In this document: positions 5,415 to 29,565 of the stretch, in pieces
Layout: the number at the start of each line of letters is the position of its first letter
How positions within the stretch are numbered: the first letter of the stretch is position 1
Assembly (NCBI GenBank): GCA_963692945.1
Contig: OY843585.1
Span: forward strand, 360,001 to 392,000
Source: Bdellovibrionales bacterium
GTDB taxonomy: Bacteria > Bdellovibrionota > Bdellovibrionia > Bdellovibrionales > UBA1609
Direction of reading: 5' to 3'
DNA: 32,000 nucleotides
Made by a program: the position numbers and the translations under genes
Notes under the pieces: model-generated
What the model saw: only the letters and a program-made list of their open reading frames with translations
Told to the model about the DNA's origin: nothing
The model's database searches: none

Positions 5415-5942
5415 ATGTATAGTAGAATTTCTAGATTAAAAACTTTTTTGAGTTTCAAAAAACAAGCTTTAATAAAAATAGGGTTGATTCTTTGTCTTTC
5501 TATCCCCATTTTCTATGCAAATCATTTCTTTCTTTTTCACCCTTTAGTTTTAAAGAAGAGGGTGCAAAAATTTAAAAATGAAAAACCTAAAACTCTACAG
5601 ACAGTTAAAGGATCTATTTTGGGTGACGAGTTGGATATTCATGTTATTAAAATGAAATATAGGGGTAGAGTTTATTTGGATTTTTTATCTAGACAAGAAG
5701 ATGGGACTTTTCATTTTATAGATAGCCTTACTTTAAAAGGAAAACATGATGGATTTTTTGAATATTGGAATGAGCCGCTTTCTTTAGCTTTATTAGATGA
5801 CAATGGAGATGGGCTTTTAGAAGTGATTGCCCCCACTTTTGATAAATTTTTAAAACCCCAGTTGAATGTTATTTTTTATAATAAAGAAAAAAAGAAATTC
5901 CAAATCAAATCTTTTTTAAAGTCAAAACCTAAAACACAATAA
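5415..5942 (+). CDS. hypothetical membrane-anchored protein
   Basis: 175-aa ORF with an N-terminal hydrophobic segment (IKIGLILCLSIPIFY). It has one DDNGDGLLEV segment resembling an FG-GAP/Ca-binding loop. No family recognised. Confidence 0.5.
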   Translation: MYSRISRLKTFLSFKKQALIKIGLILCLSIPIFYANHFFLFHPLVLKKRVQKFKNEKPKTLQTVKGSILGDELDIHVIKMKYRGRVYLDFLSRQEDGTFHFIDSLTLKGKHDGFFEYWNEPLSLALLDDNGDGLLEVIAPTFDKFLKPQLNVIFYNKEKKKFQIKSFLKSKPKTQ

Positions 5943-7399: not shown

Positions 7400-7741
7400 T
7401 TAACTCATCAAATCAGAAACACATTCTCTATAAAAAACAGGGGTGGATTCCATAAACCCAATATGCATTTCAAATAAATGTTTATTAACGGGAGATATGC
7501 TTTTAATAACTCCTTCAAATTTTAACTCATATTTAGATAAAAAGAGTTCCACATAGTGATTTAAAAATTCTATAAGAAAAGATTTTTCTGAGATTGGAAT
7601 TTGGTCTTTTTTAAAATGAAAATAAAGACCTTTGTTGTCAACATTCACTAATTGTACTTTATGAGCTAAAATAGATTTTTTTTCAAGAGAGATGACATCA
7701 GATACAATATGATTTTTAAGTAGAAGTTTTGATTTTTTCAT
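7400..7741 (-). CDS. hypothetical protein, possibly a degenerate PilZ-like domain
   Basis: 113-aa ORF convergent with the lipoprotein gene. NVDNKG loosely fits the (D/N)x(S/A)xxG PilZ motif, but no RxxxR is present (only KLLLK). The functional call is weak. Confidence 0.45.
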   Translation of the reverse strand: MKKSKLLLKNHIVSDVISLEKKSILAHKVQLVNVDNKGLYFHFKKDQIPISEKSFLIEFLNHYVELFLSKYELKFEGVIKSISPVNKHLFEMHIGFMESTPVFYRECVSDLMS

Positions 7742-8435: not shown

Positions 8436-9008
8436 CTATTGTATGTCTCCCGATTTTAAAACGGTCAATATAGATTTGAAAAGATGTTTTAGGGGTTCTA
8501 TAATTTTTTGCCCTGTTTTGATAGAACTCTCAAAATCTTTACAATTGTATTTATTAAGATGAGTTCTTAAATTTTCAATAGAAATCGTTTCTGGAAGGTC
8601 TCGTTTGTTGTATTGAAAAACAAGTGGGAGTTTAAAAATATCTACATTTTGATCTTCTAGTATTTTATGAAGTTCCTTAAGAGATTGTTCGTTGCTTTTA
8701 TGAGCTGTTGGTTCAGAATTGGCAACAAAAACAATTCCATCTACTTCTCGCAGTAAATATTTTTTTTCTTCTAAATTCAAATCTGGAACAGAGTAAATAT
8801 GAAAAAAGGTTTCTAAGCCCAGTACTTTTCCTATAGAAATAACGAGGCTTTCTACGGGAGATTCTAAAGGAATAGAAAAGGAGCTCACTTTATTTTTTTC
8901 AGAATGTTTTTGAATGTATTTAAGAGATGAGGTTTTTCCAGCTCCTAAAGGACCATAGTAGATCACTTTGCAGTGAATTTCTTTAGCATTGTTATTGATG
9001 ATAGACAT
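8436..9008 (-). CDS. mglA: MglA-family Ras-like small GTPase (divergent catalytic residues)
   Basis: Collinear with Myxococcus MglA as I recall it (MSxIN...EIxCKxxYYGP..GKT...FHxY(T/S)VP...DG(V/I)VFVA(D/N)S...QYNKRDL). Walker A GPLGAGKTS and NKRD are present. The start ATG overlaps the recR TAA (TAATG). Confidence 0.85.
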   Translation of the reverse strand: MSIINNNAKEIHCKVIYYGPLGAGKTSSLKYIQKHSEKNKVSSFSIPLESPVESLVISIGKVLGLETFFHIYSVPDLNLEEKKYLLREVDGIVFVANSEPTAHKSNEQSLKELHKILEDQNVDIFKLPLVFQYNKRDLPETISIENLRTHLNKYNCKDFESSIKTGQKIIEPLKHLFKSILTVLKSGDIQ

Positions 9009-9649: not shown

Positions 9650-11374
9650 CTAATGGGTGTCAGAAGTTTCTTTAGAGACGGATTTAATATTTCCTTGAAA
9701 GACCTCTGTCACATCCTTTATAAAGGGGTCTTCTTGTATTTGTTTTAGAAGAATTTTTTGATCTTGCTCTTTTTTTTCTGTTTTTAAATTCCTATTTGCT
9801 TTTAGGGAGGTTTCAAACTTTATGGATATTTTTGAATCTGTTTGGAGGTATTCATTTAATTTTTGTTCAAGGAATTTGTGAGTCTTTGTATCCGTCAATT
9901 TGTTTTTCATATAAGAAAAAGCTTCAGGAAGTAAGTAAATGTAGCTGGTTTGATTTTTTTCTTTAAAAGATAGGTGTTCAAATAGGGAGCTCAAACCAGA
10001 ATCTACTCCTCTTAAAAAATCTAAAAATCCAAAGTGGTCAAAATCTTTCTTTGTCTTTGAGAGTGTTTTTTCTTTAGAAGGTTCTTTTAGAGGCTGCTCC
10101 TTTGGATTTATTTTGTTTTTAAACTCTTGTTTTAAAGGCTCCACTTGTTTTTTCAAAATCTCTTGAGATTCTATCTCTTGAGATTTTATCTCTTCAGAGT
10201 TTTTTTTTACAACTTCAGGTCTTGTCTTAGAAGGTTTTTCTTCTCCCTCTTTTAAGATGGAGAATGGCAAGATAGATTCTATTCTTGGAGATTGACACAC
10301 TCTCAAAAGTAAGACTTCTAAAACCATTCGGCTTGCAAAGGAAAGGGAAATCTCTTGTTCTCCTTTTAAAAGCATATCAAATAAAAAGTGCAGGTCTTCA
10401 TAGGAGGTTTCAGCACACATTGCTTTTAAGGATTGAATCTCTTGTTTTGAAGTTTGAATCAAAGGCGGTGTATTTTCAGGGTTGATTTTTAAAATCAAAA
10501 GATTCCTTAACCCTTCAATCAAACTTTGTAAAATAAGTTTTGTTTCATTACCTTTAGAGTAAAGGTCTTTTAAAACAGCTAACATTTGTTGTTCATCTCT
10601 TTTAACAATGGATTCTAAACATTTAAAAATAATTTCAGTATCTGTTAAGCCTAGAAGTTCTATGATTTCTTCTTTTGAAATTTTTTCACCACAAAAGGTT
10701 ATGATTTGATCCAGAAGACTTTGAGCATCTCTTAGAGACCCTTCAGATTGCTTTGCAATCAGCCATAAGGCTTCTTCTTCTAAAGGTATTTTTTCTACCT
10801 TACAGATTTTTTCTAAGTGTTCTTTTATAAGTAAAGGGGCAATGAGGTGAAAGTCTAATTTTTGACAACGAGATTCAACAGTTTGTGGAATTTTATGAGA
10901 TTCGGTTGTGGCCATAATAAAAATAACATGGTTAGGAGGCTCCTCTAAAGTTTTTAATAGAGCATTGAAAGCACTGTTAGATAACATATGCACTTCATCA
11001 ATGATATAGATTTTTAACGACCCTTTAGAAGGCATGTAATGAACGGTGTTTCTTAGCTCTCGGATAGCATCCACACCATTGTTGCTAGCTCCGTCAATTT
11101 CTATCACATCTAAACTTTTTCCCTCTTGAATAAGGATGCATTCTTGGCATTGATTGCAAGAGTTGTTGTTCTTTTTTTCAAGACAGCGAAGTGTTTTTGC
11201 TAAAATTCTGGCTGTTGAAGTTTTCCCAGTTCCTCTAGGTCCTGTAAATAAGAGAACAGGATAGAGGCGGTTTTGTTTAAGGGCATTTGTTAAAACCCTT
11301 TGAACAGAGTTTTGTCCAATCAGCTCTTCTAAACTTTGAGGTCTCCATTTACGAGCTAAAACTTCATAGGCCAT
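9650..11374 (-). CDS. dnaX: DNA polymerase III subunits tau/gamma
   Basis: AAA+ clamp-loader motifs GPRGTGKTS, the zinc module CNQCQEC, IIDEVHML and SRCQ. The low-complexity K/E-rich C-terminal half is tau-like. Confidence 0.95.
   Translation of the reverse strand: MAYEVLARKWRPQSLEELIGQNSVQRVLTNALKQNRLYPVLLFTGPRGTGKTSTARILAKTLRCLEKKNNNSCNQCQECILIQEGKSLDVIEIDGASNNGVDAIRELRNTVHYMPSKGSLKIYIIDEVHMLSNSAFNALLKTLEEPPNHVIFIMATTESHKIPQTVESRCQKLDFHLIAPLLIKEHLEKICKVEKIPLEEEALWLIAKQSEGSLRDAQSLLDQIITFCGEKISKEEIIELLGLTDTEIIFKCLESIVKRDEQQMLAVLKDLYSKGNETKLILQSLIEGLRNLLILKINPENTPPLIQTSKQEIQSLKAMCAETSYEDLHFLFDMLLKGEQEISLSFASRMVLEVLLLRVCQSPRIESILPFSILKEGEEKPSKTRPEVVKKNSEEIKSQEIESQEILKKQVEPLKQEFKNKINPKEQPLKEPSKEKTLSKTKKDFDHFGFLDFLRGVDSGLSSLFEHLSFKEKNQTSYIYLLPEAFSYMKNKLTDTKTHKFLEQKLNEYLQTDSKISIKFETSLKANRNLKTEKKEQDQKILLKQIQEDPFIKDVTEVFQGNIKSVSKETSDTH
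10200..10208 (-). other. A9 tract in dnaX (candidate recoding / transcriptional slippage site)
   Basis: Codons 389-392 read GTA AAA AAA AAC, confirmed by the translation VVKKN. This gives an A_AAA_AAA heptamer. The -1 frame gives K-L-TGA and the +1 frame gives T-L-K-R-TAA. Confidence 0.3.
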
Positions 11375-11493: not shown

Positions 11494-12375
11494 TTATAAA
11501 TTTTGTTTTTCCAGCCATTGTGAAATTTTAAACCCTGTTCCTTTAGGGATTCGGATACGATGATGATAAATCGTTTTTGGTATAAGGCTTTTTTTCAGTT
11601 CAGGATTTAAGGTTTTCAACTCTGAAAAGGAAAGGCTTGTTTCTTGGCATAATTGTTTTAAATTTAAACCTCCTGGAGCATAAAAAACATCATATCTATA
11701 AGGAAATAAAATAGAAAACTGCGAGAAGCCATAGCGTTCAGGATTTTTCATAATCAAGGTTGCAGCTAGAATTTTTGGAACATAAAGAGCCGTTTCTGAA
11801 GGAAAATCGTGTTTTTTAGCTAGAATCCAAAAATTTCTACTCTTATGTTTTTTTATCAATTTAGCGAGGCGATTTTCTCCCATATTGTAAGCTGCCATAG
11901 TTAAAAGCCAGTCATCAAACTCCTTATAGAGCTTAGAAAGGTAGTTTGTAGCGGCTAGAGTGCTTTTTTCAAAATCTTTTCTTTCATCTAGCCAGTGATT
12001 GACACGAAGTCCATGTTGAGAGGCTGTAGGTTTGATAAACTGCCAGTAACCAACAGCTTTTGCTGAGCTTACAGCTGTAGGAGATAAACTGCTTTCTATA
12101 AGAGTCATATAGACCAACTCTTCTGGAAGAGATTTTTCTCTTAAGATTCTTTTCATCATAGGGAAATAGCGATAAGAACGTTTGAGCCAGATTTTAATAT
12201 AATTGGGTTTTTTATTTTTAACAAAAAAATGAATCCATCTATAAGTTTCATTATTGTAGATGATTGGGAAGGGTTTGATAGGGTTGATTTTTATAGTCTG
12301 TGGCAAGTTTTTTTGATTTTTGGACAGTGCATAACTTGATGAAAAAAAGAAAAAGAGTATTAAACAAGCCTTCAT
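11494..12375 (-). CDS. membrane-bound lytic murein transglycosylase (MltD-like, SLT domain)
   Basis: Signal peptide. SLT catalytic motif LIESSLSP...AVGYWQF plus AAYNMGENRL. The C-terminal segment is LysM-like. Confidence 0.8.
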   Translation of the reverse strand: MKACLILFFFFSSSYALSKNQKNLPQTIKINPIKPFPIIYNNETYRWIHFFVKNKKPNYIKIWLKRSYRYFPMMKRILREKSLPEELVYMTLIESSLSPTAVSSAKAVGYWQFIKPTASQHGLRVNHWLDERKDFEKSTLAATNYLSKLYKEFDDWLLTMAAYNMGENRLAKLIKKHKSRNFWILAKKHDFPSETALYVPKILAATLIMKNPERYGFSQFSILFPYRYDVFYAPGGLNLKQLCQETSLSFSELKTLNPELKKSLIPKTIYHHRIRIPKGTGFKISQWLEKQNL

Positions 12376-12844: not shown

Positions 12845-13633
12845 ATGAGGCGATTTTGGATTGATCGTTCGTGCTTTCAAGAAGAAAAGATTATTTTAAA
12901 AGGTTCTCTTTTTCATCATATATGTCGTGTTTCTCAAATACAAAAAGGGGAACCTTTTGAGTTGTTTGCAGAAGGGTTGCAAAAATACACAGTTGTTCTC
13001 ACTTCTGTCAGTCACTCTAGAGCCTTTGCTAAAATTGTAGAAACACATCCCGTTCCAAGTTTAGCAAAGCCTTCTATTCATCTCGCTCTTTCTATACCAA
13101 GATTTTCAAAATTAGATTTTATTCTGGAAAAATCTGTGGAATTAGGAGTTAAAGAACTGCATCCCTTTGTTTCTTCTTTGAGCTTTATAAATAAGGCTTC
13201 TCAATTTCCTTTAGCAAAAAAGAAAAGATTACAAAAGATTGTTGAAAGTTCTTTGGCTTTGAGTGGGCGAACAGAAAAACTTGAAATTCATCCTGTTTGT
13301 AACTTGGAAGATATTCAAATTCCTAAAAATCATAGGGCTTTTATGGCCTATGAAGGGGGTGAAGGGGATTCTTTAGCAGAAACGAAGGCCTCTAAAAAGG
13401 GGAACTCTTTTGGTGTGGGGATAAAACAAGTGCTTTCTTTTTTAGAAAAACAAAAAGACTCTTCAGAAGAAGTTTGGCTTTTTATAGGTAGTGAGGGTGG
13501 ATTCACTTTAGAAGAAGCCAAGCGATTCTTTCAATCTGGGGGTTTTGTTGTATCTTTAGGAGAACAGATATTAAGGGTTGAAACTGCTTGCTTGCTTGGC
13601 TTGAGTATTTTAAAATACAACTATCACAATTAA
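12845..13633 (+). CDS. rsmE: 16S rRNA (uracil1498-N3)-methyltransferase
   Basis: RsmE/DUF558 pattern: MRRFWID N-terminus, SIPRFSKLDFILEKSVELGV, IGSEGGFTLEEA and LGEQILRVETA. Confidence 0.85.
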   Translation: MRRFWIDRSCFQEEKIILKGSLFHHICRVSQIQKGEPFELFAEGLQKYTVVLTSVSHSRAFAKIVETHPVPSLAKPSIHLALSIPRFSKLDFILEKSVELGVKELHPFVSSLSFINKASQFPLAKKKRLQKIVESSLALSGRTEKLEIHPVCNLEDIQIPKNHRAFMAYEGGEGDSLAETKASKKGNSFGVGIKQVLSFLEKQKDSSEEVWLFIGSEGGFTLEEAKRFFQSGGFVVSLGEQILRVETACLLGLSILKYNYHN

Positions 13634-13644
13634 GGATTTTAATA

Positions 13645-13815
13645 TTGAAAATACCAGTTTCTAAATTAAGTAGCGAACAACTTGAAACTCTTTTTGAAGA
13701 AAGTCAGTATGTAGAAAAATTCTTTTTTCCTCCAGAGGTTCCTACTGTGCCTGCTTTTAAAGAGGAAGAAGAACTTTTAGTTTTAAAAACAGAAAGCTCC
13801 ATAGAAGATGAATGA
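13645..13815 (+). CDS. small acidic hypothetical protein (56 aa), translationally coupled to menB
   Basis: A TTG at 13645 has AAGGA 8 nt upstream, right after the rsmE stop. The ORF's TGA overlaps the menB ATG (ATGAATGA). No homology recognised. The track's 13588 start overlaps rsmE. Confidence 0.3.
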
Positions 13816-14629
13816 GTCATGGAAAAAAATTAAAGATTTTGAAGATATCAAGTTAGAAAAAACATCGGATGGGATAGGTCGTATCACAATCAATCGTCCT
13901 GAGCTACGAAATGCTTTTCGCCCTCTCACAGTGAAAGAGTTAAAAGAATCTTTTGAGATTTGCAGAGAGGATTCCTCTCTAGGAGTTATTATTTTAAGAG
14001 GAGAAGGGGAAAAAGCTTTTTGTTCAGGAGGAGATCAGAAAGTTCGTGGTTCTGGAGGCTATGTGGATCAAAACGGAATTCCCCGATTAAATATTCTAGA
14101 TGTTCAAAAACAGATTCGCTCTTTACCTAAACCTGTGATTGCTAGTGTGGCAGGTTATGCTATAGGTGGAGGTCATATCTTACATGTTGTTTGTGATATA
14201 AGCATTGCTGCTGATAATGCCCGGTTTGGTCAAACAGGTCCTAAAGTGGGTTCTTTTGACGGGGGGTTGGGTAGTTCCTATTTGTCTCGTATTGTGGGTC
14301 AAAAAAAAGCAAGAGAGATTTGGTTTCTTTGTCGGCAATATTCTGCCAAAGAGGCTTTAGATATGGGATTGGTGAATGCGGTTGTTCCTCTTAAAGATTT
14401 AGAAAAAGAAACCTTAAAATGGTGTCGTGAGATTTTACAAAACTCTCCTATGGCTCTTCGTTGTTTAAAGTATGCTTTGAATGCGGATTGTGACGGTCAA
14501 ATGGGTCTTCTAGATTTTGCAGGGAATGCCACTTTACTTTATTATTTAACAGAAGAAGCCGAAGAAGGAAAAAAAGCTTTTCTAGAAAAACGAAAACCTA
14601 ATTTTTCTAAATTTCCTCGTTATCCTTAA
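13808..14629 (+). CDS. menB: 1,4-dihydroxy-2-naphthoyl-CoA synthase
   Basis: Crotonase fold with MenB-specific stretches [39 protein letters not shown] and a C-terminal KRKPNF. Confidence 0.95.
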
Positions 14630-19052: not shown

Positions 19053-19772
19053 GTGATAGATAAAGGTCTTTTGAGTAAGATTTCTCTTCCTCCTCAATGG
19101 AGCTTGGAGGTCAAAGAAGAAGACTTATATCTTCATACAGGAGAAGGCCGTCCCTTCACCTTAGATTTTTCTAAGCTTAAAAATCTTTCAAAAAATCAAC
19201 CTTTAGCAAAGGCTGTTGGAGTAAAAAGTGGTAAAAGGTTGAGGGTTTTAGATGTGACAGCAGGCTGGGGAAAGGATGCTTTTTTATTGGCCAGTTTATC
19301 TTGTGATGTCATTGCTATAGAATCTCATCCACTGGTTTTTATTTTTTTAAAGGCGGCTTTATCTAAGAGAGATCTTAAAACTCCAAAATCTTTACAATTT
19401 ATACTTGATAATAGTTTAAATTACTTGAAAAATATGAAAAGTGAGGAAAAACCAGAAGTGATTTATATGGACCCTATGTTTGCAAGTGATAAAAAATCTT
19501 TAAGCCATAAACCTTTGAGAGTGTTAAAGACACTGGTTGGAGAATCCAACCAGTCAGAGACTTTTCAGTCGGAGACTTTCCAGTCAGAAACTTTTCAGTC
19601 GGAAACTTTATTTAAACAGGCTCTTGGAAAATCTCTCAATCGTATTGTGGTAAAAAGACATAAGCATCAAAAATCAATGCCTTTTGCTCCTTTAATGTGT
19701 ACTTTTTCAGGACGCTCCGTTTGTTATGATGTTTTTTCTACGCAAAGGAAAAAAGGACAGACATTATGTTAG
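19053..19772 (+). CDS. rsmJ: 16S rRNA (guanine1516-N2)-methyltransferase RsmJ
   Basis: Collinear with E. coli RsmJ/YhiQ as recalled: AKAVG(I/V)K, VLDVTAGWGKDAFLLASL, VIYMDPMF and IVVKR. It carries an inserted SETFQ repeat. Confidence 0.85.
   Translation: MIDKGLLSKISLPPQWSLEVKEEDLYLHTGEGRPFTLDFSKLKNLSKNQPLAKAVGVKSGKRLRVLDVTAGWGKDAFLLASLSCDVIAIESHPLVFIFLKAALSKRDLKTPKSLQFILDNSLNYLKNMKSEEKPEVIYMDPMFASDKKSLSHKPLRVLKTLVGESNQSETFQSETFQSETFQSETLFKQALGKSLNRIVVKRHKHQKSMPFAPLMCTFSGRSVCYDVFSTQRKKGQTLC
19551..19610 (+). repeat. 4 x 15-bp tandem repeat encoding QSETF x4 within rsmJ
   Basis: The units are CAGTCAGAGACTTTT, CAGTCGGAGACTTTC, CAGTCAGAAACTTTT and CAGTCGGAAACTTTA. Differences among the first three are all synonymous. 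Confidence 0.9.
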
Positions 19773-20662: not shown

Positions 20663-20680
20663 GTGAAGGGCGATAGGGTC

Positions 20681-21361
20681 ATGGTTAGAGAATCTACACT
20701 TAATAAAAAAAAACGATTAGAAAAGATCATTGCCAAGTTAAAAAAAAATTATCCTGATGCAAAATGTGCACTTCATTTTAATACTAAACTGGAACTTTTA
20801 ATAGCGACTCAACTCAGTGCTCAATGTACAGATAAAAGAGTCAATCAAGTTACAAAAGACTTATTTAAAAAGTATAAGACAGCAAAAGATTATGCGGAAG
20901 CTCCTATTAAAAAATTGGAAACAGCTGTGAAGTCCACTGGATTTTTTAGGAATAAGGCACGTAATATAAAAAAATCTTGTACCGAAATTGATAAAAAATA
21001 TTGTGGTAAGGTTCCAAAAGACTTTGATCAATTGGTTCAGTTAGCCGGAGTGGGAAGAAAAACAGCTCATGTTGTTATGGGAAATGGATTTAATATACCA
21101 TCTGGTGTGGTGGTGGACACTCATGTTAAAAGACTTTCAAATAGAATGGGATTGGTAAATACCGCTAATGTTTTTCATATTGAACAAAAATTGGAAGCCT
21201 TAGTCTCTAAAAAGTATTGGATTTTATTTTCTCATTGGCTTATAGAGCATGGTCGGAGTGTATGTTCCGCTCGTCGTCCTCATTGTGGTTTGTGTTTTTT
21301 AGTGGATATTTGTCCTAGAAAAGGTGTTTCTTTGAAAGGAATGGATGATAAAAAAAACTAG
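20681..21361 (+). CDS. nth: endonuclease III
   Basis: I prefer the ATG at 20681 to the GTG at 20663. HhH-GPD region LVQLAGVGRKTAHVV, a catalytic Lys/Asp context and the Fe-S cluster CSARRPHCGLCFLVDIC. Confidence 0.93.
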   Translation: MVRESTLNKKKRLEKIIAKLKKNYPDAKCALHFNTKLELLIATQLSAQCTDKRVNQVTKDLFKKYKTAKDYAEAPIKKLETAVKSTGFFRNKARNIKKSCTEIDKKYCGKVPKDFDQLVQLAGVGRKTAHVVMGNGFNIPSGVVVDTHVKRLSNRMGLVNTANVFHIEQKLEALVSKKYWILFSHWLIEHGRSVCSARRPHCGLCFLVDICPRKGVSLKGMDDKKN

Positions 21362-24474: not shown

Positions 24475-26478
24475 ATGGAGATTATTTCTATAAAAAATTC
24501 ATTGGCTTGTCCTTCTTCAAAAGAGCCTTCTTTTTCAGTCCGTTTGAAGAGTGCATCGGGAGAAGCATTTACTTTAGCAGATCCAAAAGCAACAAGAGCT
24601 CTTTTAGCCTGTATGAATATGGAAGCTGTTTTAGGTGGAGCGGCCAGTCACTGGGGAGGTCCAGCGGCTTTTGCAGAAATTATGTCTGCTCTTTATGGAT
24701 TGGTTTTTGCTGAAGCTCAAAAAAAGAATCAAAAATGGTATGAGAGATTTCATCTTATCAATGATGCTGGTCATTGTGAAAATGGTCTCTATGCCTTAAA
24801 AGCGAATTATCAAATGGCCCATTTGAGTTTGGAAGATTTAAAGAAATTTAGATCTGTAAAAAGTTTTTTGACAGGACATGGGGAAGCTCATTTGTTTCCA
24901 GAAGGAGTTTATTTAAGTAATGGTCCTTTAGGCTCTACAGTGGCTCAAGCTCAAGGTTTGGCTATGGCCGATAAACTTTTAAACAAGGAAAGAATGTGCA
25001 TCGTGACTCTCAGTGATGGGGCTTGTATGGAGGGGGAAGTTAAAGAAAGTTTTGCAGCTCTACCGGGCTTTGCGAAAAAAAATCAAGTGAATCCTTTTTT
25101 ATTAATTATTAGTGATAATAATACAAAACTCAGTGGTCGTATTGATAAGGATAGTTTTTCTTTAGAACCGACTTTTGAAAGTTTAAAAAGTTTAGGTTGG
25201 GATTTACAAGTAGTTCCTAAAGGTAACGATTTGGAGTCTGTTTTTTATGCTTTAGAGCAAGCCTTACAAAAAACATGGAACAACCCTCAAACTCCTTTAG
25301 CTCTTGTGGTGAAAACCTGTAAGGGGTTTGGAGTGAAATCTACTATGGAATCCGCTTCAGGTGGTCATGGATTTCCTTTAAAAAAACCAGAAGAGTTAAA
25401 ACCTTTTTTAGAAGAGATTTACGAGGGAGGAGTGATTCCTTCTCCTCTATTAAAATGGTGTGAGGAATTGCAATTCAAAAAGAAATCCACAAAAAGCAAT
25501 TCTTCTTTTGTAAAAGTTCAATCCGGAGTGAATAAGGCTTTGATAGAAGAAAAGCAAAAAGGGAAACCTCTTGTCTCTATCAGTTCTGATCTTTATGGTT
25601 CAACAGGAGTTGGAGATTTTAGAAAAACTTTTCCAGAAAGTTCCTTTGATGTTGGAGTGGCTGAAGCCAATATGGTGAGTGTGGCTGTTGGGTTTTCTAA
25701 GCAAGGATTTATTCCTGTTGTAGATACTTTTGCACAGTTTGCTATCACAAAAGGGTCTTTACCTCTTATAATGTCTGCTCTTTCTCAAGCTCCCATTCTT
25801 GGTGTTTTCTCTCATGCTGGTTTTCAAGATGCTGCGGATGGAGCCTCTCACCAAGCTCTTTCTTATATTGCAAAAACTTTTTCTCTCCCTCATACAGAGG
25901 TTTATAATTTAAGTTGTGCCGATGAAGCTTATGCTTTTATCTCTCAAGCCGTAGAAGAATTTTACAATCAAAGAAAAAATGGAAAAGTTCCAAATTCAAA
26001 AATTTTTTTTCTAGGCAGGGAAACATTTCCTAAAAAATTAGGAGACTTTTCTGGAGAGTATCAAATTCGGAAACCTCAGCTTTTATTTCAGTATAAAACA
26101 GAGAAAAAACCAGTTTTAGTTGTTGCTACAGGAGCTTTAGTTTATGAAGCCTTACAAGCAGCAGAACAGCTTAAAAAACAAAATCAAGCTGTTGTTGTTA
26201 TCAATAACTCCTCTGTTAGCCATCCTGATATTTCTATTATTTCTCATTGGTTAAAAATTTGTGAAGGACGATTGTTAACAGTGGAGGATCATCAATACAG
26301 AGGAGGAATGTCTTCTCTTCTTGTTTCAGAGCTTGTTAGCCAAGGTGTATCTATAAGTCAGTTTAAAACCCTTAGTGTGAAAGGGGAATTTGGTCGCAGT
26401 GCTTACAATGCAAAAGACCTTTATCAATTATTTGGTTTGGATAGTGTTTCTATTGTAAAAGCGGTTTTAGAGTTTTAA
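24475..26478 (+). CDS. tkt: transketolase (single-chain version of the split N/C type)
   Basis: ThDP motif SDGACMEGE...IISDNN, GGHGFPL, a Pyr domain (GVAEANMVSVAVGF) and a C-terminal domain; 667 aa. Confidence 0.75.
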   Translation: MEIISIKNSLACPSSKEPSFSVRLKSASGEAFTLADPKATRALLACMNMEAVLGGAASHWGGPAAFAEIMSALYGLVFAEAQKKNQKWYERFHLINDAGHCENGLYALKANYQMAHLSLEDLKKFRSVKSFLTGHGEAHLFPEGVYLSNGPLGSTVAQAQGLAMADKLLNKERMCIVTLSDGACMEGEVKESFAALPGFAKKNQVNPFLLIISDNNTKLSGRIDKDSFSLEPTFESLKSLGWDLQVVPKGNDLESVFYALEQALQKTWNNPQTPLALVVKTCKGFGVKSTMESASGGHGFPLKKPEELKPFLEEIYEGGVIPSPLLKWCEELQFKKKSTKSNSSFVKVQSGVNKALIEEKQKGKPLVSISSDLYGSTGVGDFRKTFPESSFDVGVAEANMVSVAVGFSKQGFIPVVDTFAQFAITKGSLPLIMSALSQAPILGVFSHAGFQDAADGASHQALSYIAKTFSLPHTEVYNLSCADEAYAFISQAVEEFYNQRKNGKVPNSKIFFLGRETFPKKLGDFSGEYQIRKPQLLFQYKTEKKPVLVVATGALVYEALQAAEQLKKQNQAVVVINNSSVSHPDISIISHWLKICEGRLLTVEDHQYRGGMSSLLVSELVSQGVSISQFKTLSVKGEFGRSAYNAKDLYQLFGLDSVSIVKAVLEF

Positions 26479-26672
26479 GTTTTATTGTCAGAATGATTCT
26501 CAAGGGATTCTTTTTTCTTGGAATCTGTTTTATCCTCTTCTCCACTGAGACCTTTGCGAAAACCTCGTATGGCTTCCCCAAGAGATTTACCTAATCCAGG
26601 AATTCTTTTTGGACCAAAAAGAAATAAAACAATAGCAAGCACAATAAGTATTTGCCAAAAAGAAGGACTCAT
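26475..26672 (-). CDS. tatA: twin-arginine translocase subunit TatA/E
   Basis: 65 aa. WQILIVLAIVLFLFGPKRIPGLGKSLGEAIRGFRKG is canonical TatA. AAGGAG RBS. A perfect TATAAT (minus strand, about 26718-26723) lies upstream. Confidence 0.9.
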   Translation of the reverse strand: MSPSFWQILIVLAIVLFLFGPKRIPGLGKSLGEAIRGFRKGLSGEEDKTDSKKKESLENHSDNKT

Positions 26673-26722
26673 AAAATTACTCCTTTAATGAAAACATTCC
26701 TAATGTTCTTTTAAGTTATTAT

Positions 26723-26894
26723 ATAGGAAGTGTCAAAGATGAATTTAAAGCTTACATAGGAAATTAAATATAGATAGGAGTTTTTTATAAAGTAAAAAAG
26801 CTTCGTAATCAGCAAACGATAGGAAGTTGGAAAAGAGTTCAACATTCTTTAAAATAGGAAATCTTAAATACTCTTACAGTTCTTGTCATTAGGA
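26723..26894 (+). repeat. cluster of six same-orientation (A/T)TAGGA(A/G/T) motifs in the tatA / repeat-array intergenic region
   Basis: ATAGGAAG 26723, ATAGGAAA 26756, ATAGGAGT 26774, ATAGGAAG 26819, ATAGGAAA 26854 and TTAGGATA 26889. I did not see the motif clustered in any other intergenic region of the window. Confidence 0.8.
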
Positions 26895-26975
26895 TATTTG
26901 AGTTTATGCTTGTTTAATATCAGTTAAATAAAAGATTTTATAGGTGTAATAACAAAAATAACGCTATTTAATAAG

Positions 26976-27004
26976 TTGATTTTTTACAAATTAGATTTTA
27001 TATT
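26976..27004 (+). promoter_or_regulatory. candidate sigma70-type promoter driving the repeat array and downstream gene
   Basis: TTGATT, 17-nt spacer, TATATT. The predicted TSS is about 27011, 20 nt before the ATG at 27031. Confidence 0.4.
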
Positions 27005-27030
27005 GTTTTATATCTTGGTTTGTTGATCAA

Positions 27031-27507
27031 ATGAAAGATAATTATTCTAAGAATAATAAAGTTCTTAAGAATAATAAAGTTCTTAAGAATAATAAAGTTC
27101 TTAAGAATAATAAAGTTCTTAAGAATAATAAAGTTCTTAAGAATAATAAAGTTCTTAAGAATAATAAAGTTCTTAAGAATAATAAAGTTCTTAAGAATAA
27201 TAAAGTTCTTAAGAATAATAAAGTTCTTAAGAATAATAAAGTTCTTAAGAATAATAAAGTTCTTAAGAATAATAAAGTTCTTAAGAATAATAAAGTTCTT
27301 AAGAATAATAAAGTTCTTAAGAATAATAAAGTTCTTAAGAATAATAAAGTTCTTAAGAATAATAAAGTTCTTAAGAATAATAAAGTTCTTAAGAATAATA
27401 AAGTTCTTAAGAATAATAAAGTTCTTAAGAATAATAAAGTTCTTAAGAATAATAAAGTTCTTAAGAATAATAAAGTTCTTAAGAATAATAAAAAAGGAGG
27501 TTCTTAA
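27031..27507 (+). CDS. repeat-encoded ORF MKDNYSK(NNKVLK)24NNKKGGS; translation uncertain
   Basis: Open frame with an ATG but no Shine-Dalgarno. Its TAA directly abuts the next ATG. It could equally be an untranslated leader. Confidence 0.25.
   Translation: MKDNYSKNNKVLKNNKVLKNNKVLKNNKVLKNNKVLKNNKVLKNNKVLKNNKVLKNNKVLKNNKVLKNNKVLKNNKVLKNNKVLKNNKVLKNNKVLKNNKVLKNNKVLKNNKVLKNNKVLKNNKVLKNNKVLKNNKVLKNNKVLKNNKVLKNNKKGGS
27052..27483 (+). repeat. 24 perfect tandem copies of the 18-bp unit AATAATAAAGTTCTTAAG
   Basis: Read directly from the sequence. The copy number is confirmed by the track translation (NNKVLK)x24. A degenerate copy lies 5' (about 27034-27051). A 25th copy, interrupted by AAAGGAG, lies 3' (27484-27507). 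Confidence 0.97.
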
Positions 27508-28434
27508 ATGAGCAAAATTTTCAAAAAAATACTTATTGTTGGTGTTTTTATCTTCTCTTCAGTGCAAGCTGTGGGAACTGTTATAACCCCAACGGAGAGT
27601 ACAACAGCCGTTAAAATAACAGATGGTTTCGGGAATCCAGTTCCTTCAATAGTTAGATCAGTAGCTGTAAATGTTGCAGTAGATTTAGATACCGAAATTC
27701 TTAATAAATTTGCACCTATAGTTGGAGCTATTGAGGAATCTAAAACAAAGGATAATGTAGAAGTAGACCTTACAAGCATTGTACCAGAAGACTTTAGTGC
27801 TTTACTTAAGAGAATTAGAGTCAGTGTTGAAGGGAGCTTAATTAATGATATAATGACGCCTGATCTCAGAGCTACATTAGCTCCAATACTTGTTGAAAAT
27901 GATTCAAGCATGAAAATTGAGTTGGATGTAAGTGGTAAAAATCTTTTAAGTTTCTTAATAATTGTAGGTAATTCTCAAAAAGAATCTAATTCTCTAGAGA
28001 AAATGCTTAGTTTCTTATCTGCTAATAAATACGAAGAGGTTGAATCATCTTCACCTGTTACATCAATGTCAGTTGAATTGGATGTAGATGTAGATCTTAT
28101 AGAGTTTGCTCAATCTCTAGAGACTTTCAATAATCTAATGAAGCCAGGAACTGATAAGCAGAGTTGGCTTAGTAAATTAGATCAAGTGACGGCAATGTTT
28201 CCAAGGATTTTAGCGAAACTAGATGTAAATGATACAACTGAAAGTCATATTATACACAGCGTGTTATGGTTTATGTATGATGTTGCAATGGAAGAAGACG
28301 CAGAAATATCCGAGCATGTTAGTGCTAGCGAATATTTTAAAGAAAGGGATGTTGAATATTCTATTTCAAAGAAAGGTGATAGAATGTCTATACTTATGTC
28401 TGAACAACGATCTATGTCTGAACAACAAAACTAA
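27508..28434 (+). CDS. secreted acidic protein of unknown function
   Basis: Strong RBS (AAAGGAGG, 7-nt spacing). Sec signal peptide MSKIFKKILIVGVFIFSSVQA. By hand count about 48 D/E versus about 25 K/R. No family recognised. Followed by a strong terminator. Confidence 0.75.
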   Translation: MSKIFKKILIVGVFIFSSVQAVGTVITPTESTTAVKITDGFGNPVPSIVRSVAVNVAVDLDTEILNKFAPIVGAIEESKTKDNVEVDLTSIVPEDFSALLKRIRVSVEGSLINDIMTPDLRATLAPILVENDSSMKIELDVSGKNLLSFLIIVGNSQKESNSLEKMLSFLSANKYEEVESSSPVTSMSVELDVDVDLIEFAQSLETFNNLMKPGTDKQSWLSKLDQVTAMFPRILAKLDVNDTTESHIIHSVLWFMYDVAMEEDAEISEHVSASEYFKERDVEYSISKKGDRMSILMSEQRSMSEQQN

Positions 28435-28462
28435 TTTATAGATTCTTAATAAATAAATTTAT

Positions 28463-28493
28463 AAAAGGGGTTAAGGAATTAACCCCTTTTTTT
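28463..28493. terminator. bidirectional rho-independent terminator
   Basis: AAAA GGGGTTAA-GGAA-TTAACCCC TTTTTTT: an 8-bp stem with 4 G:C pairs, a 4-nt loop, an A-run 5' and a T-run 3'. It lies between the convergent genes 27508..28434 (+) and mutY (-). Confidence 0.75.
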
Positions 28494-28527
28494 GTTTGTT
28501 TTAAAAGTGAAACATTCTAGAGATGTT

Positions 28528-29505
28528 TTAAGTTTTTAAAATTTTTTGAATTAAGGAAGAAGGGTTTAGTTTTGTGGCTTGTTTTTGTGTGAACCATTGA
28601 ATCGGTTTTTCTTTTAGTTTTTTAACCGTAGTAGATTTAATGTTAACAAAAATTTGGTAATGCATAATACTGTGACAAAAATGGTATTTTTTTGGTTTAG
28701 ACTTAAGTTTTTTTATAGTTCCTGGAAACATAATTTTATCTTTTAAAAAAGGAATGTTTTTATGTTTTGTAAAAGCCAACTTAGAATTTTTAAAGACAAT
28801 CTCTGGTTGCCAATACCAAAGTTCTTTTTCTTTTTTAGTCTTTTTTAAAGGAAGTTCATTTTGAATTTTACTTTTAAAAGCTTTGCAATACTTCATTAAA
28901 GGGCATATCAGGCAAAGTGGATTTTTAGGAATACAAACTAAAGAACCTAATTCCATTAAAGCTTGATTCATCAAAGAGGAGTCCATTTGTTGAACCCAAA
29001 GGTCTGCCAAATTTTGGAGTTGATTTTTACTAGAAGCTTCCCACCATTTTAAAGCTTGTCCATAAAACCGAGATAAAACTCTGATCACATTTCCGTCAAG
29101 GACTCCAACTGACTCTTTAAAAGCTAAGGAGCTCACAGCTCTGGCTGTGTAGGGGCCAAATCCTGGTAATAAAAGAAGTTCTTTATGATTTTTTGGAAAA
29201 TGCTTCTGATTTTTAATCTTCTTAGCTGCTTTTATGAGATTTTCGGCTCTTCTATAATAACCTAGTCCAGTCCAAAGAGGAAAAACATCTGCCTTTTTAG
29301 CTTGGGATAATGATTTTATAGTGGGAAATCTCTTTAAAAACTTAGTGTAGTAAGGGATAACGGCTTTAGAAGTTGTTTGTTGAAGCATGACTTCTGAAAT
29401 CCAAATGCGATAAGGGTCTTTTGTATTTCTCCAAGGTAAATCTCTATGATGTTTTTCAAACCAAAGAAGTAATTTTTTTTGTACCTGTTTTTGGACTTTT
29501 TTCAT
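28528..29505 (-). CDS. mutY: A/G-specific adenine DNA glycosylase
   Basis: LLLWFEKHHRDLPWR, YRIWISEVMLQQT, GLGYYRRA, the Fe-S cluster CIPKNPLCLICPLMKYC and a C-terminal NUDIX-like domain. I prefer the start at M18 (29505) on N-terminal length; the track's start is 29556. Confidence 0.88.
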   Translation of the reverse strand: MKKVQKQVQKKLLLWFEKHHRDLPWRNTKDPYRIWISEVMLQQTTSKAVIPYYTKFLKRFPTIKSLSQAKKADVFPLWTGLGYYRRAENLIKAAKKIKNQKHFPKNHKELLLLPGFGPYTARAVSSLAFKESVGVLDGNVIRVLSRFYGQALKWWEASSKNQLQNLADLWVQQMDSSLMNQALMELGSLVCIPKNPLCLICPLMKYCKAFKSKIQNELPLKKTKKEKELWYWQPEIVFKNSKLAFTKHKNIPFLKDKIMFPGTIKKLKSKPKKYHFCHSIMHYQIFVNIKSTTVKKLKEKPIQWFTQKQATKLNPSSLIQKILKT

Positions 29506-29565
29506 AGGGACTTTAGAGTAGATTTTAACACATCCAAGAGAGATGTTGATCTCCATACAAAAACA

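Follow-up and report, generated by a model that had tools for sequence, protein, structure and literature searches.

An 18-bp tandem array in the putative leader of an ORFan gene, a candidate contingency locus in a Bdellovibrionales genome

Introduction

Why should a compact bacterial chromosome carry two dozen identical copies of an 18-bp sequence directly in front of a single gene? The question is raised by a 32,000-nucleotide stretch of a Bdellovibrionales bacterium (GenBank assembly GCA_963692945.1, contig OY843585.1, positions 360,001 to 392,000 of the forward strand), which is hereafter called the window and in whose coordinates all features are given. In it, a perfect tandem array lies between a candidate promoter and the ribosome-binding site of an ORFan gene whose product looks like a secreted protein. 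A preliminary description of the locus had listed several possible roles for the array, among them a tunable leader, a set of protein-binding sites, a ladder of promoters and the coding region of a polycationic peptide. By analogy with characterized loci, we consider it moderately probable that the array is a young, slippage-prone minisatellite (a variable-number tandem repeat, or VNTR) in the leader or promoter region, whose copy number would change the expression of the secreted-protein gene. We file the locus as a candidate contingency locus and not as a proven member of that class.

Structure of the array

Tandem Repeats Finder reports a single array at 27048-27492, with a period of 18, 24.7 copies, 100% matches, no indels and a score of 890, which makes it by far the top-scoring repeat of the window. 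A pattern search resolves the perfect core as 24 zero-mismatch copies of AATAATAAAGTTCTTAAG arranged head to tail on the + strand (27052-27483, 432 bp, 16.7% GC), in agreement with the earlier count of 24 identical copies. No match to the unit with up to three mismatches occurs outside the array in the 32 kb, where 0.36 would be expected by chance. The units follow one another directly, without the spacers of a CRISPR. Two properties expected of contingency repeats are found here, namely an identical head-to-tail tract and a position before a gene where tract length could alter expression.

The two edges of the array differ from its core and from each other. On the 5′ side, a degenerate copy, AAAGATAATTATTCTAAG (27034-27051, + strand), matches the unit in register at 11 of 18 positions where 5.5 would be expected (binomial p ~0.008), and the blocks upstream of 27034 resemble the unit at chance level. 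On the 3′ side, a 25th copy (27484-27507, + strand) is split, as had been described and as can be read directly in the sequence: its halves, AATAATAAA (27484-27492) and GTTCTTAA (27500-27507), match the unit at 9/9 and 8/8 positions and are separated by AAAGGAG (27493-27499), and the ATG of the next gene follows at 27508. The inserted 7-nt block creates the Shine-Dalgarno sequence AAAGGAGG, whose GGAGG core (27496-27500) lies 7 nt before the ATG. The core of the array accordingly ends, at 27483, 12 nt from the GGAGG and 24 nt from the ATG of the gene at 27508-28434 on the same strand, and the array starts 44-48 bp past the best -10 candidate.

Edge copies unlike a uniform core are the usual anatomy of an internally homogenized array. 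Because the 5′ copy is decayed and the 3′ copy is perfect but interrupted, this array appears to have been homogenized from within. It looks like an in-situ expansion of the downstream gene's own leader, and the preliminary description, which had proposed an amplification of that gene's 5′ untranslated region (UTR), is backed on this point by the degenerate 5′ copy and by the matches of the split copy. The absence of any divergence among the copies fits an array that is young or continually homogenized, and prone to slippage, in agreement with the recent expansion or ongoing homogenization suggested before.

A putative promoter and a self-complementary leader

Unique AT-rich intergenic DNA (26673-27030, 23% GC) separates the array from the divergent gene tatA and should hold the promoters of both transcription units. 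Within it, a sigma-70-like promoter candidate, TTGATT-17-TATATT (26976-27004, + strand), matches the consensus at 9 of 12 positions. Transcription from this site would be expected to start at about 27010-27012 and to yield a leader of about 500 nt that includes the whole array. The candidate is present where it had been described, but its earlier rating as a good promoter is too strong: its score ties with those of three further + strand candidates within the same 358 bp (beginning at 26827, 26828 and 26883) and with that of TTAAGA-17-AATAAT, which recurs in register inside the array, as had been noted, and which we count 23 times at 9/12 each. Shuffled sequence would yield about 11 promoter-like 9/12 sites in every 2.4 kb. 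Conservation in such promoters is highest at the TTG of the -35 hexamer and at the first T of the -10 hexamer; the upstream site retains both and for that reason looks qualitatively better than the array-internal sites, which have neither. We infer that the array is probably transcribed from the upstream site, as part of a non-coding leader.

Such a leader would be strongly self-pairing. The 10-bp palindrome TTCTTAAGAA spans every unit junction, and two adjacent units are predicted to form a hairpin of about 10-12 bp, with a free energy of -6.1 kcal/mol as DNA and -10 kcal/mol as RNA. The predicted fold of the putative leader has an energy of -178.6 kcal/mol (z = -19.6) and offers many equivalent registers with no dominant structure; locally, the two final units pair together and the Shine-Dalgarno sequence is mostly unpaired. 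On current models of slippage, self-complementary units should stabilize slipped replication intermediates, and the same property would tie both the length and the structure of the leader to copy number. The array does not correspond to a catalogued structured RNA, as Rfam gave no match at gathering thresholds and only chance-level matches at E <= 1. A tRNA search found none.

Copy number as a possible setting of gene expression

These features suggest the following course of events. The minisatellite would have expanded in place from A/U-rich leader sequence just 5′ of the ribosome-binding site of the ORFan gene. Transcription would start at or near the site at 26976-27004 and yield a non-coding leader of about 500 nt that consists mostly of the array. 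Units of 18 bp would be gained or lost at high frequency through replication slippage or unequal exchange, helped by hairpins between neighboring TTCTTAAGAA cores, and each change in copy number would shift the distance from promoter to ribosome-binding site, the length of the leader and its structure, and with them the output of secreted protein. The reading frame of the gene would never be affected, as no part of the array lies within the gene. If the direction of the effect may be guessed from the hmw1A and hmw2A genes discussed below, longer arrays would lower expression.

The preliminary description had held that no described system has this architecture. That claim does not stand, since tandem repeats that lie between promoter and start codon and tune expression have been described (PMC2424069, PMC4679880, PMC12817950). 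The closest likeness is to hmw1A and hmw2A of Haemophilus influenzae, whose promoter regions carry 9-28 copies of a 7-bp repeat and whose mRNA generally falls as copies are added (PMC2424069). In both cases a perfect array follows a promoter, a putative one here, and precedes the start codon of a gene whose product is exported in H. influenzae and looks secreted here. The range of 9-28 copies brackets the 24 found here, and in hmw a change in length alters the level of expression and not the reading frame, as is proposed for the present locus. The hmw repeats have a shorter unit (7 bp against 18 bp) and belong to an unrelated organism and gene. They have been shown to vary within and between strains and to have a measurable effect, two properties that are proposed for the present candidate. 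To our knowledge, moreover, the hmw unit contains no palindromic core.

A second comparison is provided by uspA2 of Moraxella catarrhalis, whose 5′ UTR holds 6-23 copies of AGAT, the number depending on the strain, and which is expressed most highly at 18 copies (PMC4679880, citing Attia and Hansen 2006). These repeats, too, are placed ahead of the start codon of a surface-protein gene and behind its promoter. They differ from ours in having a tetranucleotide unit and in that their transcription within the mRNA has been shown experimentally, while here it is inferred. The poly-G tract in the 5′ untranslated region of uspA1 of the same species can be grouped with this case.

In marine Beggiatoaceae, in Cyanobacteria and in Bacteroidetes, arrays of the heptamer TAACTGA with as many as 43 copies are found ahead of start codons, and a post-transcriptional or leader role has been proposed for them (PMC4679880). 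Like the array described here, they consist of direct repeats in forward orientation just 5′ of start codons, and relatives lack them. In contrast, they occupy many loci per genome, share one heptamer and often replace the Shine-Dalgarno sequence, whereas the array described here occupies one locus in 32 kb, has a unit of 18 bp that is unique to it and leaves the Shine-Dalgarno sequence in place.

Units of minisatellite size directly upstream of genes are also known from Mycobacterium tuberculosis, in which promoter tandem repeats with units of 54-58 bp lie 12-29 bp before the start codons of dop, lpdA and cysG (PMC12817950). Their copy number varies between isolates, and copy-number variants arise at 10^-2 to 10^-3 per chromosome in isogenic populations, a variation that short-read assemblies hide (PMC12817950). 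Each of these units contains a whole promoter and the copies are few, whereas the unit studied here is too short for a promoter and is present 24 times. The mycobacterial genes are, in addition, leaderless, while a strong Shine-Dalgarno sequence follows the array in our case.

The array also recalls the MIRU class of intergenic minisatellites, with which it shares a stop codon that abuts a start codon. As Supply et al. 1997 reportedly described, MIRUs contain small open reading frames (ORFs) that touch or overlap stop and start codons of the genes on either side. MIRUs, however, are 40-100 bp long, imperfect, located inside operons and dispersed over dozens of loci, and none of these properties is seen here; in particular, the absence of further unit copies from the window, at the mismatch limit given above, speaks against dispersal of the MIRU type. 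Taken together, the locus shares the position and the logic of known expression-tuning repeats and differs from them by its 18-bp unit, its palindromic core, its retained strong Shine-Dalgarno sequence and the organism in which it occurs.

Should copy number indeed vary and set expression, the locus would be the first candidate of the contingency type in an uncultured Bdellovibrio-like lineage with small genomes, and the ORFan secreted protein might be under fluctuating selection, for example at an interface with prey, host or phage. The array would then also represent a rare bacterial repeat with a unit of intermediate size, between the simple repeats of 1-9 bp and the 54-58-bp promoter repeats of M. 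tuberculosis. The locus is an obvious marker for strain typing.

Several considerations weigh against this interpretation. The unit was found in no second genome, metagenome or viral contig with which copy number, whose polymorphism is the defining property of a contingency repeat, could be compared: exact patterns of two units and of 28 nt had no match in the genome, metagenome and viral contig collections. The proposed promoter is a 9/12 match to consensus in very AT-rich DNA, where such matches abound, and transcription could start inside or after the array, given that a 9/12 site occurs in every unit. The effect on expression is argued by analogy only. Finally, the structural model of the ORFan protein is unusable, so that no case for an advantage of variable expression can be built on what the protein does.

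Alternative explanations

The alternative that survives best, and one that we still think unlikely, is that the array is neutral, a recent product of runaway slippage in a dispensable leader with no regulatory consequence and no selected function. This would agree with the zero divergence, which marks the array as very young, with its occurrence in no other sampled sequence, and with the tendency of self-complementary units to slip irrespective of any function; slippage products also occur elsewhere in the same genome, as in the coding 15-bp array (QSETF)x4 of an rsmJ-like gene. Yet coding sequence fills about 91% of the window, intergenic gaps have a median length of 14 bp, and in so compact a genome a neutral array of 445 bp should be short-lived. 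The gap of 835 bp between tatA and the ORFan gene is the longest in the window, which argues that the array is not ordinary spacer DNA. Nor is expression likely to remain unchanged when some 445 nt that pair strongly with themselves are added between promoter and ribosome-binding site; known arrays in such a position do change it. Were the array neutral after all, it would be merely a young minisatellite of little consequence.

Quite improbable, in our estimation, is an action of the array at the level of DNA, either as a ladder of weak promoters or as an operator array for a dimeric protein that recognizes TTCTTAAGAA and silences or activates the gene. A promoter ladder would find its rungs in the 23 in-register sites that score as high as the upstream candidate, the penultimate of which would yield a leader of about 30 nt that retains the Shine-Dalgarno sequence, and it would have a parallel in the repeated promoter units of M. 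tuberculosis, for which a change in promoter strength has been proposed. The lack of the -35 TTG and of the first T of the -10 hexamer in the array sites nevertheless counts against it. An operator array would account for the perfect 10-bp palindrome in each unit. By simulation, the chance that a circular 18-mer contains such a palindrome is 3.1% at the composition of the window, as had been estimated earlier (about 3%), but 7.7% in shuffles of the unit itself, and at 3-8% its significance is only modest and the palindrome weak evidence. The exact palindrome occurs nowhere else in the 32-kb window, and its matches with one mismatch number 11 outside the array against about 10 expected by chance. 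A Pfam scan of the ORFs of at least 80 amino acids in the window, minus two small ones nested in or overlapping larger ORFs, revealed housekeeping functions only and no Rep, Par or other DNA-binding or regulator gene, and the 18-bp spacing would set successive sites out of phase with the DNA helix. The earlier suggestion of a binding-site array finds no support in the form of a regulator that also acts elsewhere, given the confinement of the palindrome to the array, the chance-level number of near-matches and the lack of a DNA-binding gene nearby. Beyond the palindrome, nothing seems to point to a protein-binding role.

Related roles for the repeats as DNA were also considered. Plasmid iterons and the parC sites bound by ParR consist of direct repeats in tandem, about 10-22 bp long and in some cases with dyad symmetry inside the unit, to which protein binds cooperatively; the array studied here, by contrast, is aimed at a ribosome-binding site and not at an origin or a partition operon. 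An iteron-like or centromere-like array is made less likely by the lack of a Rep, ParB or ParR-type gene in the window, by the lack of plasmid or phage similarity and by a monotonic GC skew. As the skew is uniformly positive, with no change of sign in the window, the locus does not mark a replication origin or terminus either. A role connected with restriction sites was discarded on the frequency of CTTAAG, which is neither avoided nor enriched outside the array (12 sites against about 16 expected, an expectation inflated by the inclusion of the array in the shuffles).

It is highly improbable that the array is an artefact of assembly, the true locus holding far fewer units, or another number of them, and the 24 copies having arisen from the resolution of a repeat loop. 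A perfect tandem array that exceeds the length of a short read is difficult to assemble, and the copy number of 24 comes from one assembly. Assemblers, however, usually collapse tandem repeats rather than expand them, an argument also made for M. tuberculosis (PMC12817950). The source is, furthermore, one contig of 1.56 Mb, which suggests long reads or finishing, and the unique edge copies on both sides indicate that a real repeat locus exists. The case may serve as a reminder that arrays of this kind are collapsed or mis-sized in short-read assemblies.

We see only a very slight chance that the array is translated from the ATG at 27031, such that (NNKVLK)24 delivers ribosomes to the abutting ATG of the ORFan gene or acts as a partner of the acidic protein. 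The ORF in question, MKDNYSK(NNKVLK)24NNKKGGS (27031-27507, + strand, 158 amino acids), is a mechanical reading of the array. Much of what had been reported of it was confirmed: its ATG lacks a Shine-Dalgarno sequence, its TAA (27505-27507) abuts the ATG at 27508, and its product would carry a charge of about +50 (previously given as +48), opposite to that of the mature secreted protein (about -23). A point that had not been noted is that the ORF is in frame with the next gene. Translation might in addition protect a long leader. What does not hold is that the open frame is special. Stop codons are absent from the unit in two frames of each strand (four of six overall), so that an open frame across the array is unremarkable. 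The GC content at second codon positions (GC2) is 0.025 in this ORF against 0.26-0.39 in real genes. The missing Shine-Dalgarno sequence is not decisive, since most ORFs of the window have no clear one and its absence is by itself a weak argument, but the AUG is also half-paired in a predicted 5′ hairpin. The ORF is missing from a protein collection in which tatA, tkt, mutY and the ORFan of the same contig are all present, from which it follows that the depositor's gene caller did not call it, and among 8000 word-sharing candidates drawn from 5.8 billion clusters no (NNKVLK)n-like protein was found at E <= 0.01. The downstream gene, which has a very strong Shine-Dalgarno sequence of its own, would not need coupling, and a peptide that has no signal peptide could not accompany a secreted protein. 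For these reasons the ORF is probably not a gene, and the polycationic peptide and the termination-reinitiation envisaged in the preliminary description find no support. Least probable of all is a variable-length upstream ORF in which ribosomes starting at AUG 27031 melt the repeat RNA, make (NNKVLK)n and end at the TAA abutting the next AUG, although, if true, copy number would set the dose and length of the +50 peptide together with the coupled output of the acidic ORFan protein, in a two-product, copy-number-tunable cassette that has no described counterpart.

The downstream gene

The gene that follows the array (27508-28434, + strand) encodes an acidic protein of 308 amino acids whose N-terminus, MSKIFKKILIVGVFIFSSVQA, looks by eye like a Sec signal peptide. 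Its mature product would have an isoelectric point of 4.4 and a net charge of about -23. Relatives were sought in a word-indexed search of 5.8 billion clusters and in an exhaustive phmmer (HMMER) search of 1.84 billion representatives, and each recovered the protein itself only; it has no Pfam match. Despite this isolation, the gene looks real and resident. The GC contents at its first, second and third codon positions (0.46, 0.33 and 0.22) match those of housekeeping genes, its Shine-Dalgarno sequence is, with the GAGGAGG of frr, the strongest in the window, its N-terminus resembles a signal peptide and it appears to possess a terminator of its own, all of which argue for a genuine gene. The terminator-like element is an intrinsic-type hairpin with a 12-bp stem followed by a T run (28463-28490, + strand), between the ORFan gene and the convergent mutY, and it would close the array and the gene into a monocistronic, self-contained unit.

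A single-sequence AlphaFold2 prediction for the protein reached a confidence (pLDDT) of 35, and the model is unusable. Residues 56-195 contain four instances of the motif [VI]x[VL]D[VL], at residues 61, 89, 142 and 194. Internal repeats in the protein were nevertheless rejected, as its self-alignment score equals the mean of shuffled sequences. As regards gene starts in the window more generally, most ORFs have no recognizable Shine-Dalgarno sequence within 25 nt upstream, the ORFan gene and frr being clear exceptions; this survey is a rough one, because some of the listed starts are merely the first possible start codon.

Genomic context

The window is ordinary chromosomal DNA of about 32% GC. 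Its Pfam-matched genes include pyrH, frr, uppS, rseP, recR, dnaX, a men cluster, ispB, nth, an ABC transporter, tkt, mutY and alaS. Clustered at 90% identity, the proteins of the window remain singletons. The closest genomes to be found were metagenome-assembled genomes (MAGs) of Bdellovibrionales and Bdellovibrionaceae, with transketolase identities of 52-77%.

The array and the ORFan gene occupy a lineage-specific segment whose left edge is a short ORF, MSPSFWQILIVLAIVLFLFGPKRIPGLGKSLGEAIRGFRKG... (26475-26672, - strand), which from its motif we take to be tatA, encoding the 65-amino-acid twin-arginine translocase subunit. This gene overlaps the stop codon of tkt by 4 nt and had been overlooked by ORF lists that start at 80 amino acids. 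Because it extends to 26672, the intergenic region before the array begins at 26673 and should be read as a divergent promoter region. On its right, the segment is bounded by a mutY-like glycosylase gene of the HhH-GPD family (28528-29556, - strand, Pfam match). In the closest relative found, a Bdellovibrionales MAG (L003), the order of genes is ABC ATPase, tkt, tatA (-), mutY (-), an arginase-family gene (+) and alaS (-); its tatA ORF (12005-12187) is 80% identical to that of the window, and its mutY 67%. In this relative the gap between the mutY stop and the tatA start measures just 67 bp (12188-12254), against 1855 bp here (26673-28527). The 1855-bp segment is oriented on the strand opposite to tatA and mutY and is composed of the 358 bp of unique AT-rich DNA, the array, the gene of 308 codons and the terminator. 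By this comparison, the array and the gene appear to form a self-contained, lineage-specific cassette.

An origin of the segment from a mobile element was rejected, as there is no plasmid or phage similarity and no terminal inverted repeats are present at the segment edges (direct repeats at the edges were not searched). The arginase-family gene of the relative (13176-14192) lies between mutY and alaS.

Other repeats and neighboring genes

A degenerate scan for TTCTTAAGAA at 18-bp spacing returned nothing in viral contigs and a single metagenome contig (Ga0242657_1012821, our L009). This contig is a fragment of small-subunit rRNA (RF00177, 189 bits) with an insertion of about 650 bp (~333-986), in which a CT-rich 7-bp array accompanies an 18-bp array of 24.6 copies of AGAAAAGGAAAGTTCTTA (83% matches, position 519-952). 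The unit of the latter has AAAGTTCTTAAGAA in common with the unit of the window, and the two arrays share their period and a similar copy number in wholly different contexts, a resemblance that is probably a coincidence. The repeat-filled expansion segment in an rRNA is odd in itself.

Two shorter repeats are found within coding regions of the window. One, at 19550-19609 (+ strand), consists of 3.9 copies of the 15-bp sequence CAGTCAGAAACTTTT (86-93% matches) in the ORF at 19053-19772, where it encodes (QSETF)x4 near the C-terminus of an RsmJ-like S-adenosylmethionine methyltransferase and constitutes a second slippage-type array in the window. The other, at 10158-10198, comprises 2.7 copies of the 15-bp sequence ATCTCTTGAGATTCT (92% matches) in the ORF of dnaX (9650-11374, - strand).

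Among the remaining genes, an nth-like one (20663-21361, + strand) and the mutY-like one at the edge of the segment place two iron-sulfur glycosylases of the HhH-GPD/EndoIII type within 8 kb. A 190-amino-acid protein (8436-9008, - strand) encoded next to recR matches the Arf family of small GTPases (PF00025, E = 7e-8) and is possibly an MglA-like GTPase of the Ras superfamily. A Sel1-repeat protein (PF08238; 6337-7149, + strand) follows a gap of 394 bp and stands beside the Pfam-less ORFs 5415-5942 and 7400-7741, and this patch forms another small cluster of non-housekeeping genes.

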